NCBI GenBank assembly: GCA_034926225.1
Contig: JAYFRF010000004.1
Span: forward strand, 40,499 to 104,498
DNA: 64,000 nt
Direction: 5' to 3'
Origin: Clostridiaceae bacterium
GTDB lineage: Bacteria; Bacillota; Clostridia; Oscillospirales; QAMX01
The notes beneath the pieces were generated by a model that was not told the DNA's origin, searched no databases, and saw nothing but the letters and a program-made list of their open reading frames with translations. Position 1 is the stretch's first letter. Each line of letters opens with the position of its first letter. Positions 2,679 to 20,781 of the stretch are shown here, in pieces. The position numbers were made by a program, and so were the translations under genes.

Positions 2679-3686
2679 ATGAGAATATTGGTATTAGCTG
2701 GCGGATTGAGTCCCGAAAGGGATGTTTCGCTGTCCTCGGGATGCCTAATTGCCAATGCATTGATGAAGAACGGCTGCGAAGTCGCGATGGCGGATGTGTT
2801 TACCGGTGTGGATGCTGAAAAAACGGTTTTCAAAACGGATTTGGAACATCCATACGAGTATAAAATACCCGAAAAGGAGCCGGATTTGGATGCTTTACGG
2901 AGGGTGAATCCGGGAAACGCTTTAATGGGGCCGGGGATTCTCGAATTGGCGCGGAAAGCGGACGTCGTTTTCCTTGGGCTGCATGGCGGTATGGGGGAAA
3001 ACGGGCAGATTCAAGCGACGCTGGATACCTTTGGCATCCCGTATACCGGTTCTGGATATGAGGCTTGTGTTCTGGCGATGAATAAGGAGCTGACGAAGAA
3101 GCTGCTGGACGCTGAGGAAATACCGACGCCCAAGGGGTTTGTCACGAAAGCGATGCCGGAGAATGTGCCGTATCCCTGCTTTGTCAAGCCGGTCAGCGGC
3201 GGATCAAGCATCGGCACGTCGCGCGTGGACAGCAAGGCCGAACTTGAAAAAGCCATCCGTGAGGCGCAGCGGTATGAACAATCGGTGCTGATCGAGGAAA
3301 TGGTATGCGGCCGCGAGTTTTCCGTGGGTATGTTGGATGGGCAGGTGCTGCCGCCGATTGAGATCATTCCATTGGAGGGGTTTTACGACTACCTGCGTAA
3401 GTATCAAGCGGGACTGACACGGGAAATCTGCCCAGCGCAGTTGACGGCAGAGCAGGTGCGGGAAGTGCAGAACCTGACCATGCGTGTGGTAAAGATATTG
3501 GGACTGCGCGATTATGGGCGGGTGGATTTCATTATGAACGAAAAAACCGGGCGGTTTGTCTGCCTGGAAGCAAACACCCTGCCCGGTATGACGCCCATGA
3601 GCTTACTGCCGCAAGAAGCGCGTGCGGTGGGAATATCCTACGAACAGGTCTGCAAGAGGATCGTAGAGCTGGCGCTCGCGCATTAA
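2679..3686 (+). CDS. ddl: D-alanine--D-alanine ligase
   Basis: GGLSPERDVSLSSG, LHGGMGENGQIQ, PYTGSG, KPVSGGSSIG, EIIP...FYDY..KY, GRVDF, EANTLPGMT. The omega-loop Tyr (RKYQ) is of the D-Ala-D-Ala type. Confidence 0.92.
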   Translation: MRILVLAGGLSPERDVSLSSGCLIANALMKNGCEVAMADVFTGVDAEKTVFKTDLEHPYEYKIPEKEPDLDALRRVNPGNALMGPGILELARKADVVFLGLHGGMGENGQIQATLDTFGIPYTGSGYEACVLAMNKELTKKLLDAEEIPTPKGFVTKAMPENVPYPCFVKPVSGGSSIGTSRVDSKAELEKAIREAQRYEQSVLIEEMVCGREFSVGMLDGQVLPPIEIIPLEGFYDYLRKYQAGLTREICPAQLTAEQVREVQNLTMRVVKILGLRDYGRVDFIMNEKTGRFVCLEANTLPGMTPMSLLPQEARAVGISYEQVCKRIVELALAH

Positions 3687-5017
3687 CCGCCGCGCGCCTC
3701 GAGATTGTGAAGCCGCAGGAGGATGGTTGCAAGCTCCGCGCGGGTAGCCGTCCCCTGCGGATCAAAGCTTCCATCCGCGTTGCCGCGGATCAGACCGAGT
3801 GATGCAACGGTTGATACGGCGGTCCGCGCCCAGACGCTGATGCGTTTAGTGTCGGTAAAAGCGACTTTCCGATCCTTGAAAGACAGAGCCGCGGAAGCGG
3901 AAAGATATTGGTATAACAGCACGCAGAGCTGCTCGCGTGTGACAGAGGCGTCGGGGGAAAATTTTCCGTTACCGGTGCCTTTTGTAATACCGAGAGTTGA
4001 TGCCCAGAGGATATAGGCCGCGTCGGAACGTGTAGCGGGAACATCGGAAAAGCCCGTGTTACCGCGGTAATCGTTGGCGTTCATCCCTGCATAACGCCCG
4101 AGAGCACGAACGAAGCCGCCGCGTGTGAGGATGCTGTTAGGCTGAAAGTGTGACGTACGGTTGAAGATCGAACGGGAGAGCGTGTAATAGGCGGGGATAC
4201 GATACCAGTCGGACGCGGAGACATCGGAGCAGGCGAGAGTAAGGTAAGTTGTAAGCGGAACGGCTGACATAACCGCGTCAGCTATGAGACGATGACCGGC
4301 CGCATTCGGGTGCGGGTCATAACCGCCATTTAGGATGTCGGCGTTGGTCAATCCCACCGAATCGATGACAGAATGGATATCGACGAGGATGTAATTCGCG
4401 CTGATGGGAAAGGCCGCGTTAAGGGGCGTAATCCAGACCTCCGCAAAGGAACCCAGATCGAAGACAGAGGTACCGAGGGTGAAAGCCTGTCCGATGTAGG
4501 GATTGAAGATATTATTGGCGATCACCGGCACGCCGGGGGATTTTTTCGCAATATAAGCGAGAATAGAATTAAAATTCTCGGCAAATTGGGAAGCGATCTT
4601 ATAAATTACCTGAGAATCGGCTTCTTTGCCGGAGAGTTGGCTGATGATTTCGCGATAGAGCGCGCTGGTCATGCCGCTGGCAGCGTTTTTCGAGGATAGC
4701 TCCCGAAGAAGATCGTTCGCGCCGATGGAAAGAGTTATGACAGACGCAGAACGAAGAGCATCGTCATACCGGCCGCTTTGGAGCGCGGCCAGAAGCTCAC
4801 CGCTGGTTTGACCGTTGATCGCGCAATTGTCGAGCGTCGCGCCAAGAGTATCGGCAAGCAGGGCGGGGTAGGAGAGGCCTGTGTCGGCAAGACCGTAGCC
4901 GGTTGCCACACTGTCGCCGAGCGCAAGAAGGACGGGCTTGCCCGCGAGATGAGCGGATGGGAGTAGGGTGGTTACAACAAGTACGCAGAGTACCAGGGCC
5001 AAGAATCGTTTGAGCAT
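3683..5017 (-). CDS. Secreted SGNH/GDSL esterase with C-terminal S-layer homology (SLH) domains
   Basis: Start reassigned to the ATG at 5017 (RBS GGAGGT). Signal peptide MLKRFLALVLCVLVV; SGNH blocks LGDS, NGQTS, IGAND, DPHPN; SLH repeats (FSDVP...WA..LGITKG.GNGKFSPDASVTREQL; FTDTKRISVWA...GLIRGNADGSFDPQGTATRAE). Confidence 0.85.
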   Translation of the reverse strand: MLKRFLALVLCVLVVTTLLPSAHLAGKPVLLALGDSVATGYGLADTGLSYPALLADTLGATLDNCAINGQTSGELLAALQSGRYDDALRSASVITLSIGANDLLRELSSKNAASGMTSALYREIISQLSGKEADSQVIYKIASQFAENFNSILAYIAKKSPGVPVIANNIFNPYIGQAFTLGTSVFDLGSFAEVWITPLNAAFPISANYILVDIHSVIDSVGLTNADILNGGYDPHPNAAGHRLIADAVMSAVPLTTYLTLACSDVSASDWYRIPAYYTLSRSIFNRTSHFQPNSILTRGGFVRALGRYAGMNANDYRGNTGFSDVPATRSDAAYILWASTLGITKGTGNGKFSPDASVTREQLCVLLYQYLSASAALSFKDRKVAFTDTKRISVWARTAVSTVASLGLIRGNADGSFDPQGTATRAELATILLRLHNLEARGG

Positions 5018-11253: not shown

Positions 11254-11281
11254 TTGACAAACACAAATAATTAAGTATAAT
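11254..11281 (+). promoter_or_regulatory. sigma-A promoter of the iclR / cobalamin-enzyme operon
   Basis: TTGACA-16 bp-TATAAT. Confidence 0.7.
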
Positions 11282-11331: not shown

Positions 11332-12054
11332 ATGATTAAAGTATTGGAAAAAGCATTTACCATACTGGAATATGTCGCATGCGACCCGGAGAAAGCGTAC
11401 CCACTCGGCGAGCTGGCATCGCTGACTGGCGATGCGGCGACGACCTGTGCGAATATCCTGAAAACGATGTGCGAGAGGGGGTATCTCGCGCGGGGGGAGG
11501 CACGCGGAACGTACCGGCTCGGGGAGATGGCGTATGGAATGTCGCCGTATGCGGGTGCGGACACACGCTTAAAGCAGGCGGCGGCCGAGCCGATGCAAAA
11601 GCTTGTCGAAACCCTTGGAGCGTCGGGGGTGCTGGCGGTGCTGCGCGGCGGGGATAAGCGGGTCTTGGCAAGGTACCGGAGCGACAGCGTGATCGAGGTG
11701 AACATGGAAATCGTCGCGTCGAATATGTTGTTTTCCACGTCGACAGGGATTGTGATGCTGGCCACGCTTGCGGAGAACGGACGTGAGATTCCCCAGGCAA
11801 AGGAGCGCGCGGAGGATGCGTTCGGATCCTGGGAACGGTATGCCGCGCTTCTTGCGCAGGTGCGCGAGGAAGGATACTTTTACAGCGATACGAAGCCGAC
11901 GATAGCAGAGGGAGCGGTACCGCTGATTTGCGGCGGAAAGCTGATGGGCGCTTTGGGAGTACATTTCCCGAAGCTGTGTATGACGTCGCTGACGAAGGCG
12001 AGAACTGTGTCGGAATTGCTAAAGACTGCGGAAACGGTCATCAATCAATATTAA
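11332..12054 (+). CDS. IclR family transcriptional regulator
   Basis: N-terminal wHTH (KVLEKAFTILEYV...LGELASLTG...NILKTM.ERGYL...YRLG) and C-terminal effector domain (TSTGIVMLA, VREEGY, AVPL...GALGV). Confidence 0.88.
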   Translation: MIKVLEKAFTILEYVACDPEKAYPLGELASLTGDAATTCANILKTMCERGYLARGEARGTYRLGEMAYGMSPYAGADTRLKQAAAEPMQKLVETLGASGVLAVLRGGDKRVLARYRSDSVIEVNMEIVASNMLFSTSTGIVMLATLAENGREIPQAKERAEDAFGSWERYAALLAQVREEGYFYSDTKPTIAEGAVPLICGGKLMGALGVHFPKLCMTSLTKARTVSELLKTAETVINQY

Positions 12055-12074
12055 AACATACAGGAGGCAAAAGC

Positions 12075-14468
12075 ATGAATGCGAATCTGACCGCGAAGAT
12101 CAAGGAATATGCCTACGAGCTGGGGGCGGATTTGATCGGTGTCGCGCCGATTAAGCGATTTGAGAAAGCGCCGATCCAGATGTCGCCGCAGGGCATCCTG
12201 CCGACGGCAACCTGCGTCATCGTCTGCGCGATCCATCACCCGGATATTGCGATGGAGCTGGGCGGCGAAAAGCACCCGCAGATTCAGGGACCGTATACGG
12301 TGCAGTATACGATGAACACAAAGCTCGACTATATGGCGTATCACATTGCGAACCAACTCGACGCTCTAGGCTACGACGCGATACCGATCGCATCGTCGAA
12401 TATCTGGCGGTATCGTGAGATCATGGGTTTAAACGCCTGCTTTGCGCCGGACATGTCACATATTTACGCCGCGACCTGCGCCGGCATCGGGCAGCTCGGC
12501 TGGAACGGACTGACGATGAGCCCGGAATACGGGCCGTGGAACCGCTTCATCTCGATCATTACGGACGCGCCGCTGGAAGGGACGCCAATGTACGAGGATA
12601 TGACGTTGTGCGACCGGTGCGGGGAGTGTATCCGGCACTGTCCGACGGACGCATTCCGTAAGGAGGTCAAGGGCGTCAAGGTAATCGAGCCGGAGGGTCG
12701 GCGGTTTGAGTTTGCGAACAAGAACCTGTGGCGCTGCGCATGGGGCGAGCACTTCAATCTTGACCTCGATCTGCCGATACCGGACGTTGTGGATGAGAAG
12801 GTGCTGCTGGAGACGATCGACAAGCACGGGATGCGCGGCGGCGAGATGGGATGCTGCTTAAAATTCTGCCTGCCGAAGCACCTGCGTTTGCCGGGCGGGG
12901 ACTTTACGACAACCTATCAACGGAAAAAGCAGAACTATGCGAACCTGGAACTGCCGGTACATCGTCGGATGTACGATGATATCGCAAGCTTTGTGAGGCG
13001 CTACGCGGTGGACGAGGTAGCGTTCCTCGACGAAGAGACGATCGATGGTCTGAACGCGAAGGAGACCTACTCGAAGGCGCGCGGCGCCGTCGTCTATGCG
13101 ATTCGTTACCAATGCGCCGAGGGGAATATGACGCGTGAAGAGCAGCTTGCGCATCATGCAGCGGGACACGGACTCGGCGGGCTGCTCGCAACGGAACGGA
13201 CGGCGATGCATCAGATGAATATTATCGCTAATCTCGATATCACGCGCATTCTCGACAATTTCGGTTACCTGTCGATGTGCAACACGGGTGTGGACGAAAC
13301 GATCTACGCCAAAGCCGCCGGACTGCTGCAGAACACGGCGCCAAAGGGCGAAGACGCCTATGCGGCGACGTCGATCGACGCCACGCAGGACAGCTCCAAG
13401 CGCTTTGACGACGGCTCGCTAGTGGAATATGGCGTTGTCCTGACCGATGCGCCGTTTAGGACGGTGACGAAGTCCGGGCTACAGGAGCCGATTCTGCACC
13501 CGAGGAAGACACTGACGGAAAACGTCGTGGAGTATCTGCGCGAGGAAGGCTCCGATCAGATCGCGGTTATAGCGGCGGCGCGGATGGATGCGTTGGCGGA
13601 TACGTTGGAGGAGCAGCGCGGCGGGGAGAAGCTGATTCTGGCACATGATAAGAACGGGCTGTATACACCTTTCGAAGCGGAGACGGTGGAGTATGAGCGA
13701 CATGCGCGGCATACAGCCGACTACTTAAAGGGCGCGAAGAACGTTATCCTGTTCGCGCATCACTTCCCGCAGGTCGTGACCAAACGCACCATCCAGCCGC
13801 CGGCCTATGCGGCGGGACCGTACCTGTTCGCGCTGTATGAAATGACGTTCGAGCTGGGCTACAGCGCACTGAAAGTCTGCAAATACCTGCAAAGTCTCGG
13901 CTACAGCGCGGTGATGAGCTACGATCTGACAGGTATGGGCGGCAACATTGCGACACCGCGCGGACAGCTGCCGGATGCATTCTGCAACAGCCTGGAAGCT
14001 GTGGAAGCGGGACTGGGGGCACTAGCGGAGAACGGCGTCTGCTATACGGCGGAGCATGGTTTCTCGCAGGGATTCATGGCGATCGTCACCGACGCACCGC
14101 TGGAGACTTGTACATCCGCGGCGTCGATTCCCGATACAAAGGCTGCCTGCATAGAGTGCGGTGTATGTGCAAGCGCGTGCCCGGCGTGTGCGATCAGTAC
14201 GGAGAAAAAGACGATCACGTTAAACGGTACGGAATATGCATGGCGGACGATCGACTGGACGCGCTGCGACTGGGCGAAGCGGTATGCGCTCTGCGGCGAG
14301 GAGGGTTCGAAGTACACGTCCTCAAAGACGGACGTACAGGTACCCGGGCGGGTGACGGAGGGTAACCTGACGGCGGCGCTTAAAGGTATCGACCGCGTCT
14401 TAAAATTCCGTCCTACGACGACTCAGCGCTGCGTCATCGACTGCAAGCTGGTAAAGTTGCTTAGATGA
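12075..14468 (+). CDS. Three-module cobalamin/[4Fe-4S] reductive dehalogenase/QueG-superfamily protein (797 aa)
   Basis: Start reassigned to the ATG at 12075 (RBS AGGAGG). Module 1: LGADLIGVAP, AATCAGIGQLGWNGLTMSPEYGP...IITDAPL, CDRCGECIRHCP...RC...GCCLKFC. Module 3: AVEAGLGALAENG..YTAEHG...IVTDAPL, CIECGVCASACP...TRCDW...RCVIDC. A degenerate Fe-S-less module lies between them. Confidence 0.8.
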   Translation: MNANLTAKIKEYAYELGADLIGVAPIKRFEKAPIQMSPQGILPTATCVIVCAIHHPDIAMELGGEKHPQIQGPYTVQYTMNTKLDYMAYHIANQLDALGYDAIPIASSNIWRYREIMGLNACFAPDMSHIYAATCAGIGQLGWNGLTMSPEYGPWNRFISIITDAPLEGTPMYEDMTLCDRCGECIRHCPTDAFRKEVKGVKVIEPEGRRFEFANKNLWRCAWGEHFNLDLDLPIPDVVDEKVLLETIDKHGMRGGEMGCCLKFCLPKHLRLPGGDFTTTYQRKKQNYANLELPVHRRMYDDIASFVRRYAVDEVAFLDEETIDGLNAKETYSKARGAVVYAIRYQCAEGNMTREEQLAHHAAGHGLGGLLATERTAMHQMNIIANLDITRILDNFGYLSMCNTGVDETIYAKAAGLLQNTAPKGEDAYAATSIDATQDSSKRFDDGSLVEYGVVLTDAPFRTVTKSGLQEPILHPRKTLTENVVEYLREEGSDQIAVIAAARMDALADTLEEQRGGEKLILAHDKNGLYTPFEAETVEYERHARHTADYLKGAKNVILFAHHFPQVVTKRTIQPPAYAAGPYLFALYEMTFELGYSALKVCKYLQSLGYSAVMSYDLTGMGGNIATPRGQLPDAFCNSLEAVEAGLGALAENGVCYTAEHGFSQGFMAIVTDAPLETCTSAASIPDTKAACIECGVCASACPACAISTEKKTITLNGTEYAWRTIDWTRCDWAKRYALCGEEGSKYTSSKTDVQVPGRVTEGNLTAALKGIDRVLKFRPTTTQRCVIDCKLVKLLR

Positions 14469-14727: not shown

Positions 14728-14756
14728 TTGACATACGCGCGAATGTATTCTATAAT
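14728..14756 (+). promoter_or_regulatory. Perfect-consensus sigma-A promoter for the galM / beta-propeller operon
   Basis: TTGACA-17 bp-TATAAT. Confidence 0.8.
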
Positions 14757-15851: not shown

Positions 15852-17063
15852 ATGATGAAACAGAGTATATTTACACCCGACGTGCACACGACCCGTCCCG
15901 ACACGGTGCTGCCGAGCGCGCCGGTAACCCAATACGCGCGCTTTATCCGTCCTTCTGACGATGCGGACGCGAAGGCACTGGGGGATCTCTGTGCGCAAGA
16001 AGTCAAGGCCAACGTCATCGGCGACTTCGAGAAGTCGGAGGCATACTGTCGGACGCATCCGGGGGAGACCCCTGACCGCATGGTCCATGTCTCGACCTTC
16101 GTCATCCTCGACGGTGTGGTCTACATGACCTACTACGCCAACGCCGAGAACGCCGACGAGGACCCGTCGAAGCATGCGGCTCGGCTTGCATACCGTCCGT
16201 TCGACGACCCGAAGGGGCTGACGGTGCTGGAGCTGCAGAAGGTGGGCGACATGCTCGAAGGGAAGCGGGTAGACCTGCTCTATGACACGATCCTGCTGCA
16301 TAAGGGCGGGAACGAGCTGTACATCCTGTGGACCGCGGCCATCGAGGGCAATTACTACCGGCTTTACTGCGTCTACGACATCGCGGCGAAGACGGTCGGG
16401 CCCATCCGCATCAACCGCTTCCGGGTGGGGGAGGTCACGGGCGACTTCTCGACTACCGGCATGATCTCCGCGCTCGCGGAGAACGGCATTACGCGCAGGA
16501 CGATGTTCTCGGACATCGGCATCATGCAGAAGCTGACCGCGCGCGAGGAAGACGGCGAGACTTATTATTACACCGGCGCCTACTCCGGCAACGACAACTG
16601 CATCATCAAGAGCCGCGATCTGGTGACGTGGGAATATGTCGCGGCGCCGGATTTCGTCAACAACTCGCTGTGGGAGAATGCCGTGTACGTGCTCGGCGAC
16701 CGTTGTTATTACTTCGTCCGCCAACAAGAGTGTACGCAGGGCTTCCTGACGTGCTATGACCTGAAGAAAAAGACATGGGCAACGCCGATACTGATCGCCG
16801 ACTCGCAGTCCCGCTCCGACTTCATCTTCTATCACGGGCAGTTATATCTGATCCACTCGCCCGTGAACCGCGAGGGCTTCGGCATCGTCCGCGTCGATAC
16901 GGAGGACATCGTACACAGTGAGGTCGTCCTTGTCGCGGATATGAAGGAGAGCCTGTTCTACCCCTATACGCTGGTATACGGCGACGACGCGTACATCTCC
17001 TATACTGTTGGACGCCGCCACATCCGGCTGTCACGTTTCGACCTAAAAAAGTACCTGAGATAA
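15852..17063 (+). CDS. Uncharacterised cytoplasmic beta-propeller, sialidase/glycosidase-like
   Basis: Repeated short beta-strand pattern; Asp-box-like SRDLVTWE; WENAV...YYFVR, SQSR and LFYP resemble sialidase-fold Glu/Arg/Tyr positions. No signal peptide. Confidence 0.5.
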   Translation: MMKQSIFTPDVHTTRPDTVLPSAPVTQYARFIRPSDDADAKALGDLCAQEVKANVIGDFEKSEAYCRTHPGETPDRMVHVSTFVILDGVVYMTYYANAENADEDPSKHAARLAYRPFDDPKGLTVLELQKVGDMLEGKRVDLLYDTILLHKGGNELYILWTAAIEGNYYRLYCVYDIAAKTVGPIRINRFRVGEVTGDFSTTGMISALAENGITRRTMFSDIGIMQKLTAREEDGETYYYTGAYSGNDNCIIKSRDLVTWEYVAAPDFVNNSLWENAVYVLGDRCYYFVRQQECTQGFLTCYDLKKKTWATPILIADSQSRSDFIFYHGQLYLIHSPVNREGFGIVRVDTEDIVHSEVVLVADMKESLFYPYTLVYGDDAYISYTVGRRHIRLSRFDLKKYLR

Positions 17064-17067
17064 AGAA

Positions 17068-17108
17068 CAACGGCGAACGTGCGTCATGTTTACGTGCGTT
17101 CGCCGTTG
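17068..17108. terminator. Hairpin between convergent genes
   Basis: Perfect 12-bp inverted repeat CAACGGCGAACG / CGTTCGCCGTTG, extendable by G-U pairs. Confidence 0.55.
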
Positions 17109-17130
17109 CCATAGTTTACGGGGGGTGAGG

Positions 17131-18936
17131 TTACAGCTCGCTCAGGTCCATCCCCCACGTCTCATGCTGACGGAAGGGTGTCTTGCGTGTACCGATACCG
17201 CGCTTCTCCAGACACACTACGCAATCGCGCGTACAGGCGGCGGTGTTGCGGTTGGCCTCGGCGTTCGGGCTGGTCGTATCGGGGAACGCTCCGTTTGGGC
17301 AGTAGCGGCATTTGCGCCGGTCGACCGCTGCCACACGGTACTTGACCCCGCAGACCTCCCGCTCCATAACCTTTTCCCGGTCGATGGCGTCCATCGGGCA
17401 GGATACGGCGCACTGTCCGTCGCAGAGGGTGTCGGCTCCCCCCGCGTCGGGGATGATGAACAGATCGTTCGGCTCGATCTCGAGGTCGGTGGTGATCAGC
17501 CCCAGCGCCTGCCGGACGCCGAACTCCCGGGTGACGAGCTGCCCCGTCAGACCGATCTGCCCGGCGCCGCACGCCACCGCCGCGTACTCGAAGTCCGGGT
17601 ATACGTTCGGCTCAATCTTACCGTCACGGAAGCGGACGCCCTCGGGCCAGCGCTCTCCGGCGAGCGGCGACGACGGGACCGCCACACCGCCCTGATCCTC
17701 CAGCATCCGCGCGAGGGAGTACATGTACCGCGCGTTGATCAGACGTCCGGCGCGCGTCCAGAGGGTGCCCTCCTCCACACCGCGATAGCTGCCGCGCGGA
17801 ATCTCCTGCATACACAGGATCACGGATTTCGCCTCGGGGAAGATCGACAGCGGCGAGAACTGCGGGGTGCAGTCTTGGAAACGTTCCGCCGGCGCGACGG
17901 CTACAAGGTCGATGCCGCAGGCCTTCGCCATCGCCGCAAGCTCCGCTTTCGTGATCTTCGTCTCGCGCTTCGGGACGCCGACCTTCCCGCGCGCCTTCAG
18001 GTCATGGTAGCACGCCTGGATACAGCCGTACGCACCGCAGATGGGTCCGGGACGTCCGCCCTGCTCAAGCTCCTCGAAGCCCGTCGACATCGTCGTCAGG
18101 TACCGTGAGCGCTTGGACACCGCGTGACCGAAGTTGTACGCCTCAAACCACCCCATCGTCTGCTCGTCGATGTTCAGCTTCCAGCCGGGGACGTCCTTCT
18201 TGATGAACGGCGACGCCAGCTCGTTGAGACCCCAGTGCGTTAGCTTGCACTTGCCGAGGTCAACGTCGCCCCACTCGAACACGCGATCTTCGATCTGCAC
18301 GCTGACCTTCTTTGTCTTGCTCAGCGCATGCCCGGGGCAGACGTCGACGCACTTCATGCAGCGCGTACAGATATGTCCTTTATAAAGCGGGTCAGGCTCG
18401 AGCACAGCGTCGGTGATGAAGATCTCAAACCGCTGCCGGGGGCCGAACTGCGGGGTGAGGAAGACCTTCGACCATCCGAGCTCCCCGAGACCTGCCGCCG
18501 CCGCGGACAGGCGCATATGCAGCACGACGTTCGACGGCAGCTTGCCTTCCTTGACAGGCGGACGTGCGTGCGGCGCTTCATGCGGCAGGATCGTATGGCT
18601 GCCGGGCGACGCGACGGCCTCATAACCGTAGCTCTCGACGAGCTGCATGGTCTTGGTCATCGCCTCGCCGAGAGGTCCGTAGATGCCGGTGCCGTAGCCG
18701 TAGATCCAGTAGGTGGACCAGTCGGTGTTGGTCTCGATGCCTTTGTAGGAGCCTTCCAGGATGCGCCCGGCGAGTACGACGACGCTCTTGGCGTTCGGCA
18801 TGATGTTGAGCGGATTGGTCTCGGGCGGCGCGTCACGGAAGCGCTCGATGTTCGCGATGCCGCAAAGGTCCGCGCCGGCTTTCTTCGCGCACTCCTTGAC
18901 CATCGCAGCGGTCAGCGTCTGATTTGTATTCGGCAT
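17131..18936 (-). CDS. Two-module cobalamin/[4Fe-4S] reductive dehalogenase/QueG-superfamily protein (601 aa)
   Basis: Start at ATG 18936 (RBS GAGGTGAGG). Module A: AGADLCGIA, AAAAGLGELGWSKVFLTPQFGPRQRF..FITD, CTRCMKCVDVCP...KC...CGAYGCIQAC. Module B: CGIDLVAVAP, AAVACGAGQIGLTGQLVTREFG, CDGQCAVSCP...CRYCP...CTRDC. Confidence 0.8.
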   Translation of the reverse strand: MPNTNQTLTAAMVKECAKKAGADLCGIANIERFRDAPPETNPLNIMPNAKSVVVLAGRILEGSYKGIETNTDWSTYWIYGYGTGIYGPLGEAMTKTMQLVESYGYEAVASPGSHTILPHEAPHARPPVKEGKLPSNVVLHMRLSAAAAGLGELGWSKVFLTPQFGPRQRFEIFITDAVLEPDPLYKGHICTRCMKCVDVCPGHALSKTKKVSVQIEDRVFEWGDVDLGKCKLTHWGLNELASPFIKKDVPGWKLNIDEQTMGWFEAYNFGHAVSKRSRYLTTMSTGFEELEQGGRPGPICGAYGCIQACYHDLKARGKVGVPKRETKITKAELAAMAKACGIDLVAVAPAERFQDCTPQFSPLSIFPEAKSVILCMQEIPRGSYRGVEEGTLWTRAGRLINARYMYSLARMLEDQGGVAVPSSPLAGERWPEGVRFRDGKIEPNVYPDFEYAAVACGAGQIGLTGQLVTREFGVRQALGLITTDLEIEPNDLFIIPDAGGADTLCDGQCAVSCPMDAIDREKVMEREVCGVKYRVAAVDRRKCRYCPNGAFPDTTSPNAEANRNTAACTRDCVVCLEKRGIGTRKTPFRQHETWGMDLSEL

Positions 18937-18941
18937 AGTCC

Positions 18942-19841
18942 TCACCTCTCCCAATTCTGAAGCGTCCACGGCTCCGACTCACGGAATTTGTTATGGAAAC
19001 GGATCGTCAACAGGTCATTGTCCTCCAGATGCGCGATACAGGATCGCGTGCAGACGGCGGACAGGATGTTCGGGACGTCCTTTCGGGTCAGCGCGGTGGA
19101 GGTTTCGGTGAGCTTCTCCTGATTGCCCGTGAAGCCGGGCATCATCTCCTCCTGGCCGATCTTGAAGTTGACATCGGGCATCGCGCCGTTTGGACAGGTG
19201 GCGCAGAGGCTGTAGTTGACGCGCGCGAGCGTGGTCGGACGTCCGGCGACGTCGACGGTGATGGTCTCGTCGGGGTGGATGGCGTGCATGGGGCAGGCAT
19301 CGGCGCAGGCATGGCAGTTCGCGCGGTCGCAGAGCGTGCCGGTATAGACAGGGTCGGGGGACAGGGGCGCGTCGGTAAGGACGATGCCGAGGGTTACGCG
19401 CGGGCCGTAGGCAGGGGTGAGAAGCTGGCCGCACAGGCCAATCTCGCCTAGGCCCGCTGCGACCGCTGCCCAGTCAAAATTCAACAGCACGTTGGGTACG
19501 ACGCGGCCTTCCATGACGGGGCGGCTGCGTGGCATCGACTTCGCGGGCGTCGCCTCGTACGCGACGGCTTCGTAACCGGTCGACTGCTCGATAAAGCGTG
19601 CGAGGTCCACGAGAAGCCGGTAAGTGACGCGGCGGCCGTTATAACTCCAGAGCGTCCCCTCCTCGATGCCGCGAAAGCCGCCACGGGGCAGCGGCGTCCC
19701 GACGACCAGTACGGATCTGCACGCGGGCTGGATGCTCTGTGGCCGTGCGTTCTCCGGCAGCGTTAGGAAGCGTGCGGGATCGGCGACTCCGCACAGCGTA
19801 AATCCGAGAGACTCCGCGTAGGCGCGGATGGATTCCTTCAT
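18942..19841 (-). CDS. Single-module cobalamin/[4Fe-4S] reductive dehalogenase/QueG-superfamily protein (299 aa)
   Basis: Start at ATG 19841 (RBS GGAGG). LGFTLCGVA, AAVAAGLGEIGLCGQLLTPAYGPRVTLGIVLTDAPL, CDRANCHACADACP...CATCP...CTRSC. Confidence 0.8.
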   Translation of the reverse strand: MKESIRAYAESLGFTLCGVADPARFLTLPENARPQSIQPACRSVLVVGTPLPRGGFRGIEEGTLWSYNGRRVTYRLLVDLARFIEQSTGYEAVAYEATPAKSMPRSRPVMEGRVVPNVLLNFDWAAVAAGLGEIGLCGQLLTPAYGPRVTLGIVLTDAPLSPDPVYTGTLCDRANCHACADACPMHAIHPDETITVDVAGRPTTLARVNYSLCATCPNGAMPDVNFKIGQEEMMPGFTGNQEKLTETSTALTRKDVPNILSAVCTRSCIAHLEDNDLLTIRFHNKFRESEPWTLQNWER

Positions 19842-19875
19842 AAAAACACCTCCATTGGAACCTGATATACGGGTT

Positions 19876-19904
19876 ATTATACAAGTGTACGCGTCGGAAT
19901 ACAA
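19876..19904 (-). promoter_or_regulatory. sigma-A-type promoter for the minus-strand cobalamin-enzyme pair, divergent from araC
   Basis: Minus strand TTGTAT-17 bp-TATAAT. Confidence 0.6.
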
Positions 19905-19950: not shown

Positions 19951-20781
19951 ATGGAGTTTTTGCCATTCGTCCTGGAAGCGGGACAGTACACACGTCCGGG
20001 AACGCTTTCCCCCTCGGAAGATCGTATGGTGATGGACTATGAGTTCGATTTGTTCACCTCCGGGGACGGTCACATCACGGTGGACGGCGTACCGTACGGG
20101 GTGCCGTACGGTACGCTGATGCTGAGGCGTCCGGGGCAGCGCTGTCACAGCGACGGCGCGTACAGCTGCCATACGCTGACACTCGACTTCAGCGGTCATG
20201 CGAGCGGTGCGGCGACGCGTCATCGGACGGGAGAGCCGGAGCCGCCGGTTACGCACTACGCGCTCAACCTGACACCGCCGGTGCTGAGACCCGAGCCTTA
20301 CGCCGTTTACGAGGAGCTGTTCACGCAGGTACGCTTCTGCTTTCGCACGGGGTATCAGGCGGGATATGACTCATTGTTGTCGGAGTTTCTGCACCGGCTC
20401 GCGGCAGACGCGCGGCGTATGGAGAATCACCGAGCAGGGGAGCGTGAGAACGCCGCCCTGCATCCGAGTGTCCGTGCGCTGATGGAGCGGATGGCGGAGC
20501 ACTATGACGAGCGCATGACGCTTGAGTACATGGGGCAGACGGTAGGGCTGCATCCACATTATCTGCACGGGCTGTTCCGCGCGCAGCTTGGCATGACACC
20601 GGCGGAGTACCTGACGCGCGTGCGGATGATGCGTGCGGCGCGGCTGCTACTGGATACCACCGAACCCGTCGAGCGTATCGCAGAGGTGTGCGGCTATTCC
20701 GGTGCGGCCTATTTCTCCGACGCGTTCCGACGTTTCTACGGCGTTTCTCCGCGCGGTTACCGTAAGCGACTGCGGGCGTAA
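19951..20781 (+). CDS. AraC family transcriptional regulator
   Basis: N-terminal cupin and C-terminal double HTH (GLHPHYLHGLFR...G.TPAEYL...AARLL...IAEVCGYSGAAYFSDAFRR.YG.SP). Confidence 0.9.
   Translation: MEFLPFVLEAGQYTRPGTLSPSEDRMVMDYEFDLFTSGDGHITVDGVPYGVPYGTLMLRRPGQRCHSDGAYSCHTLTLDFSGHASGAATRHRTGEPEPPVTHYALNLTPPVLRPEPYAVYEELFTQVRFCFRTGYQAGYDSLLSEFLHRLAADARRMENHRAGERENAALHPSVRALMERMAEHYDERMTLEYMGQTVGLHPHYLHGLFRAQLGMTPAEYLTRVRMMRAARLLLDTTEPVERIAEVCGYSGAAYFSDAFRRFYGVSPRGYRKRLRA

Follow-up and report, generated by a model that had tools for sequence, protein, structure and literature searches.

The window analysed here is a stretch of 64,000 nucleotides (nt) from contig JAYFRF010000004.1 of a Clostridiaceae bacterium, with positions counted from its first letter. 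An open reading frame (ORF) at 11928-14468 (+) encodes an iron–sulphur (Fe-S) protein, P0001, whose most likely start is the ATG at 12075, with AGGAGG 7 nt upstream. P0001 is an internal triplication of the nitroreductase-like unit of RdhA and QueG and, in its architecture, a new variant among the class III B12 enzymes. Modules 1 and 3 each consist of a core followed by a two-cluster ferredoxin domain, and module 2 is a degenerate core only (Table 1). No RR motif or twin-arginine translocation (Tat) leader was found in P0001, the N-terminus of which, MNANLTAKIKEY, leads directly into the core. No membrane segment was found either, 19-residue hydropathy peaking at 1.55.

Table 1. Features of the three-module gene and its upstream region in the window (aa, amino acids).
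Feature	Position	Strand	Remarks
Three-module RdhA/QueG-fold Fe-S protein P0001	12075..14468	+	797 aa; no signal peptide, no membrane segment
Module 1 core	12075..12584	+	aa 1-170; nitroreductase-like, putative corrinoid-binding domain
Module 1 ferredoxin domain	12585..12944	+	aa 171-290; C179xxC182xxC185xxxC189P, C221, C261xxxC265P
Module 2, vestigial core copy	12945..13508	+	aa 291-478; without Fe-S motif and active-site loops
Module 3 core	13509..14114	+	aa 479-680
Module 3 ferredoxin domain	14115..14465	+	aa 681-797; C692xxC695xxC698xxxC702P, C731, C786xxxC790
IclR-family regulator gene	11332..12054	+	Pfam HTH_IclR and IclR_C; 20 nt separate its end from the reductase gene
Sigma-70-type promoter TTGACA-16-TATAAT, ahead of iclR	11254..11281	+	12/12 positions; pattern match only
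Second perfect sigma-70 match (TTGACA-16/17-TATAAT), ahead of galM (aldose-1-epimerase gene)	14728-14756		12/12; pattern match

The two complete modules are homologous, as had been proposed in an earlier note on this DNA, the quoted motifs of which all lie where it had placed them. BLASTP aligned modules 1 and 3 with 27% identity across 200 aa (E 4e-18), and hhalign comparison of the family alignments yielded a probability of 100% (E 1.3e-39, 239 columns). Pfam Fer4 families matched aa 172-201 and 689-735. The invariant motifs of the module 1 core were HHxD, GPY, SSNIWRYR, FAPDxSH, AGxG..G..G, PExG and NRF. The module 3 core is marked by GPY, PRG, CNxLEAVEAGxG..NG and VTDAPL, and carries an extra beta-hairpin insert at aa 519-541.

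Module 2 had no Pfam or NCBIfam matches. Its pairwise BLASTP hits to modules 1 and 3 were no more than marginal (E 0.098 and 0.019), so that profiles had to be compared, with shuffled ones as controls. In hhalign, module 2 aligned to the N-terminal part of the module 1 core (probability 93.8%, E 1.8e-7, score 53.0) and to equivalent positions of the module 3 core (probability 72.6%, score 40.2). As controls, 40 column-shuffled module 2 profiles and a reversed profile were compared with modules 1 and 3. The shuffled profiles scored 13.5 ± 2.1 (maximum 17.9) against module 1 and 14.3 ± 2.4 (maximum 20.9) against module 3, and the reversed profile scored 16 and 14, respectively. The scores of the real profile were well above all of these, and the similarity of module 2 to the two cores is therefore far beyond chance. 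The alignment of the middle region with the module core, which the earlier note had made by eye, was thus borne out. Three of its four motif pairs recurred in the profile alignment (IASFVRRYAVDEVAF/IKEYAYELGADLIGV, LDITRILDNFGY/IANQLDALGY and VVLTDAPF/IITDAPL); at a relaxed alignment threshold, VVLTDAPF of module 2 fell on both IITDAPL and IVTDAPL. The fourth pair, YAKAAGL/YAATCAGI, was not so placed by hhalign. In the structure model described below, its two members sit in a topologically equivalent short helix (H408-414 and H131-135).

We modelled the whole of P0001 with AF2, using 31 family members as input. The model is a compact globule (predicted local distance difference test, pLDDT, 85.5; predicted template modelling score, pTM, 0.90), in which all three regions share one order of secondary structure elements: helix, strand, strand, long helix, strand, short helix, and two strands. 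The top PDB matches of the whole model in Foldseek were NpRdhA, which was the best, PceA, the RdhA 8q4h and QueG (E 1e-8 to 5e-6), followed by nitroreductase and MMACHC. The global alignment to NpRdhA, with a template modelling (TM) score of ~0.25 and a root-mean-square deviation of ~23 Å, is uninformative on domain packing. A model of module 2 alone reached a pLDDT of 79. Its top 50 matches comprised QueG, which ranked best, NpRdhA, nitroreductase-family flavoproteins, and truncated CblD (best E 1.9e-3, TM 0.41-0.47). The E-values were modest and the match list was homogeneous. Given this homogeneity and the profile evidence, we accept a nitroreductase-like core as the predicted fold of module 2. 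The earlier note had set this comparison beforehand as the check on its reading of the middle region, and matches to QueG, NpRdhA and nitroreductases are what that reading called for.

Conservation was assessed on an alignment of the best 80 of 182 species-level genome relatives, nearly all of which are full-length three-module genes. Between the 'GY' strand and the 'YA..AG' helix, module 2 has 13 residues, versus 31 in module 1; there they hold the invariant SSNIWRYR...FAPDxSH loops, which are missing from module 2. The AGxG..NG..PExG..NRF segment is replaced in module 2 by a variable stretch (aa 423-439) that is disordered in the model. Module 2 has no ferredoxin domain and, in the alignment of 80 genomes, no conserved Cys, in agreement with the earlier observation that the middle region lacks a Cys motif. 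Mean pairwise identity was 72% for the core and 67% for the ferredoxin domain of module 1, 52% and 51% for those of module 3, and 35% for module 2. The numbers of invariant columns were 97 (module 1), 44 (module 3), and four (module 2). Module 2 is the fastest-evolving and least constrained part of P0001. This pattern of loss is as expected for a scaffold, not for a catalytic unit, and the low constraint fits a structural pseudo-oligomer role.

A total of 14 Cys were invariant in 80/80 genomes: 179, 182, 185, 189, 221, 261 and 265 in module 1, and 692, 695, 698, 702, 731, 786 and 790 in module 3. Each complete module thus has seven conserved Cys, versus eight in the RdhA/QueG pattern (CxxCxxCxxxCP ... 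C ... CxxCxxxCP). The second Cys groups, GCCLKFC and QRCVIDC, had rightly been described as non-canonical: they read CxxxC(P), both modules lacking the Cys with which CxxCxxxCP opens. Aligned with C383xxC386xxxC390P of PceA, they become x258xxC261xxxC265P in module 1 and x783xxC786xxxC790 in module 3. The missing Cys is replaced by M or F at position 258 and, in module 3 of P0001, by T at 783; no conserved Cys occurs at the equivalents of either position across the 80 genomes. C260 (of 'GCC') is no general substitute, because it is found in only 39% of the family. The isolated C221 was aligned with C372 of PceA by a module 1-type profile, for which ten module 1 segments and four single-module relatives were used. 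In QueG of S. thermophilus, the distal cluster is bound by Cys184/187/190/243 and the proximal cluster by Cys194/210/236/239 (PMC4646009); mapped onto P0001, the missing residue is therefore a ligand of the proximal, cobalamin-facing cluster. By this analogy, each complete module would hold an ordinary [4Fe-4S] cluster beside a three-Cys one. The putative ligands of the distal [4Fe-4S] cluster are C179/182/185/265 in module 1 and C692/695/698/790 in module 3. The proximal clusters, bound by C189/221/261 and C702/731/786, would be either [3Fe-4S] or [4Fe-4S] with a non-Cys ligand, because only three Cys are available. The 'up to four clusters' of the earlier note is a reasonable estimate, to be read with seven, not eight, conserved Cys per module.

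P0001 is neither an RdhA nor a QueG but a separate family inside the same superfamily, because it scores under the cut-offs of both, has no Tat leader and RdhB partner, and lacks the HEAT domain. Whole P0001 scored 80.2 bits against TIGR02486 (RdhA), versus a curated cut-off of 160.35 bits, with module 1 (54.9 bits, E 1.2e-14) and module 3 (37.8 bits, E 1.9e-9) both contributing matches. Against TIGR00276 (QueG) it scored 40.9 bits (E 1e-10), versus a cut-off of 200 bits. The module 1-type profile matched RdhA 8q4h and PceA 4uqu with E ~1e-17, and the module 3 core matched PDB 8q4h with E 2e-4. R157 of module 1, invariant within N156-R157-F158, aligns with R305 of PceA. The combination that characterises the class III B12 superfamily, a nitroreductase-like core with a two-cluster ferredoxin domain, was found in modules 1 and 3. 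The hallmarks of respiratory RdhA, a Tat signal and an adjacent rdhB, were absent. The NpRdhA type has a vestigial, cofactor-less core N-terminal to its active core, and P0001 shows the same order, the vestigial module 2 directly preceding module 3.

Comparison with known systems separates what is new in P0001 from what is not. Respiratory RdhA (PceA 4uqu, 8q4h) share with it the core fold, the AGLG...PE(F/Y)GP...T..PL segment, the first CxxCxxCxxxCP and the isolated Cys. Unlike them, P0001 has no Tat leader, RdhB or N-terminal substrate cap, its second motif lacks the first Cys, it reaches 80 bits where the cut-off is 160, and it has three cores per chain. PceA attains a two-core state as a homodimer. 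In the NpRdhA-type catabolic dehalogenases, a vestigial cobalamin-free core copy mimics the PceA dimer interface (PMC10463259). This type (PDB 4ras, 6zxu, 6zy1; BhbA, JtRdhA) resembles P0001 in being soluble, without Tat leader and RdhB partner, and in having a vestigial Fe-S-less core directly N-terminal to a complete core and ferredoxin domain, as in modules 2 and 3. Both are also linked to regulators, cytosolic rdhA-like genes having been reported beside IclR/MarR regulators and galactose genes (PMC12219181). P0001 differs from this type by an extra complete N-terminal module, the lack of an NAD(P)H reductase domain, seven instead of eight Cys per module, and very low sequence similarity (profile E 1e-7). 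Its hosts are strict anaerobes with no known organohalide link. QueG (5d08, 5d6s) has a similar compact layout of core and ferredoxin domain; P0001 is distinguished from it by triplication, by the absence of a HEAT-repeat tRNA-binding domain and by its place beside an inducible regulator. Because modules 2 and 3 repeat the NpRdhA order exactly, the 'dead module' has, by analogy, a clear precedent and a probable role. The architecture, called unfamiliar in the earlier note, is thus familiar in its vestigial core and new in its additional complete N-terminal module; the seven-Cys pattern is new as well. We found no tandem or triple RdhA/QueG protein in the literature searched, where absence is no proof, and no precedent there for an added complete core and ferredoxin module or for a conserved seven-Cys pattern.

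The three-module architecture is not an artefact, for it recurs in at least 80 species-level genomes. A word-indexed search returned at least 538 family clusters at 90% identity, mostly of 760-800 aa; an exhaustive search returned 142 clusters at 50% identity (E <= 1e-30), and a scan of species genomes returned the 182 relatives mentioned above. Carriers belonged to at least five phyla and included Clostridia (Oscillospiraceae, Faecousia, Acutalibacteraceae), Lentisphaeria/Victivallis, Armatimonadota, Phycisphaerae, and a spirochaete metagenome-assembled genome (MAG). They came from rumen, gut, digesters and groundwater, with most genome members originating from ruminant, human and chicken gut MAGs. 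Databases (JGI, NCBI) label the relatives '4Fe-4S binding protein' or 'epoxyqueuosine reductase'. Shorter library matches that start or end inside a module look like metagenomic fragments and, with the exception of one locus described below, were left out of inferences on split architectures. In groundwater metagenomes, the DNA of 12075-14468 recurs in near-identical form (share 0.95-1.00). Metagenomes from landfill, wastewater, sludge and digesters yielded weaker matches (share 0.07-0.34), which may stem from relatives or from short conserved stretches.

Next, we clustered the flanking ORFs of 84 loci, 79 of which had an identifiable target gene and 74 enough upstream sequence. A divergent AraC-family gene was present at 41 loci and a co-directional upstream IclR gene at 18, together 59/74. 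Conserved partners (reductase, ferredoxin, RdhB, transporter, corrinoid genes) were sought among the flanking-ORF clusters and none were found; only the two regulator families recurred. There was no conserved membrane-protein neighbour among the 79 loci. A Pfam survey of 106 flanking genes yielded 163 families, none of them in more than seven genes. Since only the regulator recurs and the other neighbours are heterogeneous, the gene and its regulator behave as a self-contained inducible unit. In the window, iclR ends so close to the reductase gene (20 nt) that the two are probably co-transcribed. Perfect 12/12 sigma-70 consensus promoters are unusual, and the pattern matches before iclR and before the downstream galM point to iclR and the three-module gene as the likely transcription unit.

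The host genome encodes about ten further members of the RdhA/QueG superfamily, among them sets that also comprise three cores. In the window, ~3 kb downstream of the three-module gene (17131-19904, -), a single-module gene (18942-19904) overlaps a two-module gene (17131-18969). The former encodes P0270 (320 aa; motifs CDRANCHACADACP, CATCPNG and CTRSC) and the latter P0269 (612 aa). An AraC gene (19951-20781, +) is divergent from both. The plus-strand ORFs 17086-18108 and 18328-18960, which have no family matches, are probably antisense artefacts. On another host contig (C16:195500-202500, locus L096), three adjacent single-module genes, X, Y and Z, form an operon (1875-2840, 2858-4018 and 3909-4856). 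They are one-to-one counterparts of P0270, the N-terminal half of P0269 and its C-terminal half (215, 201, and 156 bits, respectively), and the P0269 gene is therefore a Y-Z fusion, joining the second gene to the third. Like P0001, these X/Y/Z sets have three RdhA/QueG-like modules per locus, all soluble; unlike P0001, they have Fe-S motifs with eight Cys in all three modules. They constitute a separate subfamily, against which module 1 scores 68-95 bits and module 3 scores 35-50. Because three-core sets occur in three arrangements (three genes, one gene plus a two-module gene, and one chain), the working unit of this branch may contain three cores, which we regard as a lead, not a result. The locus set apart above, on a metagenomic contig (L098:4001-5412), has a stand-alone 290-aa module 1-like gene with a real stop, followed after 138 nt by a separate 113-aa minimal module 2-like ORF (VVVGIDYPE ... 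YLDNLGYEAM ... VITNAPL) and then by a module 3-like start. It may be a split or decaying three-module gene.

We favour, with a probability of about 0.55, a reading of P0001 as a cytoplasmic corrinoid/Fe-S reductase made of two cofactor-bearing modules and a scaffold, fed by ferredoxin or flavodoxin and induced by its substrate via IclR or AraC. P0001 would then be a class III B12 redox enzyme whose single chain forms an intramolecular pseudo-oligomer. Modules 1 and 3 would each bind a base-off corrinoid, fed by the distal [4Fe-4S] cluster. As no gene for a reductase partner lies nearby, electrons would come from the low-potential ferredoxin or flavodoxin pool of the cell. Module 2 would stand in for a dimer partner, as the vestigial core does in NpRdhA, leaving the chain self-contained. 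The protein could carry out two reductive steps (C-X or C-O cleavage) on the inducing small molecule, or one catalytic and one accessory step. Modules 1 and 3 probably do different jobs and are unlikely to be redundant, because their invariant loop residues differ: HHxD, SSNIWRYR, FAPDxSH and NRF in module 1; PRG, CNxLEA and no fixed Arg in module 3. A bolder version, which we consider doubtful, would place this family, next to dehalogenases and QueG, as a third functional branch of class III enzymes: a self-contained protein with two corrinoids, four clusters and two non-identical sites that catalyse consecutive reductions of one inducing metabolite. Its proximal three-Cys centres ([3Fe-4S] or open-iron [4Fe-4S]) would be tuned for this chemistry, and the paralogue series (three genes, one plus two, one chain) would record a fusion in which one core was reduced to a scaffold.

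Several findings weigh against the favoured reading. P0001 scores far under the curated RdhA and QueG cut-offs. The residue of module 3 equivalent to R305 of PceA is not conserved; R, D or G follows Q665, and P0001 itself has Gly. Corrinoid binding is undecidable from sequence, because class III B12 enzymes have no diagnostic B12-binding motif (PMC4646009). Finally, a search of the host genome, which is 96.7% complete, found neither CobS nor CbiC, nor any cobalamin riboswitch. These absences briefly led us to favour a corrinoid-free reading. It was weakened by two host proteins with a canonical B12-binding domain and by cobalamin riboswitches in 35/43 other genomes carrying the family. As the host has B12-domain proteins without CobS and CbiC, its cobamides must be imported, and it appears to be a cobamide auxotroph with no riboswitch control over uptake. 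A further point against the corrinoid-free reading is that modules 1 and 3 both conserve the AGxG..NG...PExG segment, which aligns with the core that binds the cofactor in PceA and QueG.

The unevenness of the two complete modules is the basis of an alternative that is possible, though on balance unlikely: a single catalytic module, most likely module 1, with module 3 as an accessory electron-entry or structural module that has kept its clusters and has no working active site. Module 1 is indeed the more constrained (72%/67% identity and 97 invariant columns, versus 52%/51% and 44), its equivalent of the catalytic-site Arg305 of PceA is invariant where that of module 3 varies (R, D, G), and the lack of a separate reductase partner nearby would be explained. 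Module 3 nevertheless keeps AGxG..NG, TDAPL, PRG, GPY, CNxLEA and seven Cys in 80/80 genomes, which exceeds the needs of a plain electron wire. A corrinoid-free family, in which the cores bind another cofactor or only substrate and the chemistry takes place at the three-Cys proximal cluster, at free or non-Cys-ligated iron, appears very improbable. It would account for the fact that both modules, in all 80 genomes, lack the Cys at the start of their second motif, for a host without CobS, CbiC and B12 riboswitch yet with about ten superfamily paralogues, and it accords with class III enzymes having no B12 sequence motif (PMC4646009). Conservation of the cofactor-core segment in both modules speaks against it, as do the other B12-dependent proteins of the host and the riboswitches in most genomes with the family; moreover, every solved protein with a core and a ferredoxin domain binds cobalamin.

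Two further alternatives would assign P0001 to a known function. That it is a true catabolic organohalide dehalogenase of the tandem NpRdhA/BhbA type is improbable, although its top structural matches are NpRdhA and PceA, its order of vestigial core and active core is that of NpRdhA (PMC10463259), cytosolic rdhA-like genes lie beside IclR/MarR regulators and galactose genes (PMC12219181), and the host sequence occurs in groundwater, landfill and wastewater metagenomes. The score of 80 bits against the 160-bit cut-off of TIGR02486 argues otherwise, no dehalogenase accessory genes lie nearby, and the gut MAGs of ruminants, humans and chickens that supply most members are not an obvious setting for organohalides as a major substrate. 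The epoxyqueuosine reductase QueG, suggested by the JGI and NCBI labels on homologues and by the weak TIGR00276 match (E 1e-10), is excluded for practical purposes. Besides the 40.9 bits against a cut-off of 200, only the shared core segment at aa 125-194 aligns with QueG 5d08, the chain stops seven residues past C790 with no C-terminal helical-repeat (HEAT) domain, and a housekeeping tRNA enzyme would not be expected to have three modules and an inducible regulator of its own.

To our knowledge, class III B12 enzymes have only two established reaction types, reductive dehalogenation and epoxyqueuosine reduction. The family described here is large, widespread in anaerobes and uncharacterised, and the 'epoxyqueuosine reductase' label on its members is a recurrent misannotation. 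It offers a natural case of a chain that combines one vestigial unit with two complete, putatively catalytic ones, together with a conserved departure from the eight-Cys cluster pattern. The ligand-sensing regulator beside almost every copy is a simple handle on the substrate, which, once found, could lead to a new B12-dependent reaction in anaerobes of the gut and the subsurface.

The remaining neighbours of the three-module genes varied between loci. In the window, these include, besides the IclR gene, galM and a gene for a GFO/IDH/MocA oxidoreductase; we do not think that these adjoining sugar genes say much about the substrate. A 'sugar-linked' function was not adopted, carbohydrate families occurring only in twos and threes among the 106 flanking genes. 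Directly after galM, at 15852-17063 (+), lies a gene for a 403-aa protein with no Pfam or NCBIfam match. At the locus of a 75%-identical orthologue (L001:14296-18385), genes for a DUF4430 protein, CbiQ and a fused energy-coupling factor (ECF) ATPase/S-component are located ~4 kb downstream; this set, which is not conserved at other loci, could encode a corrinoid or cobalt uptake system.

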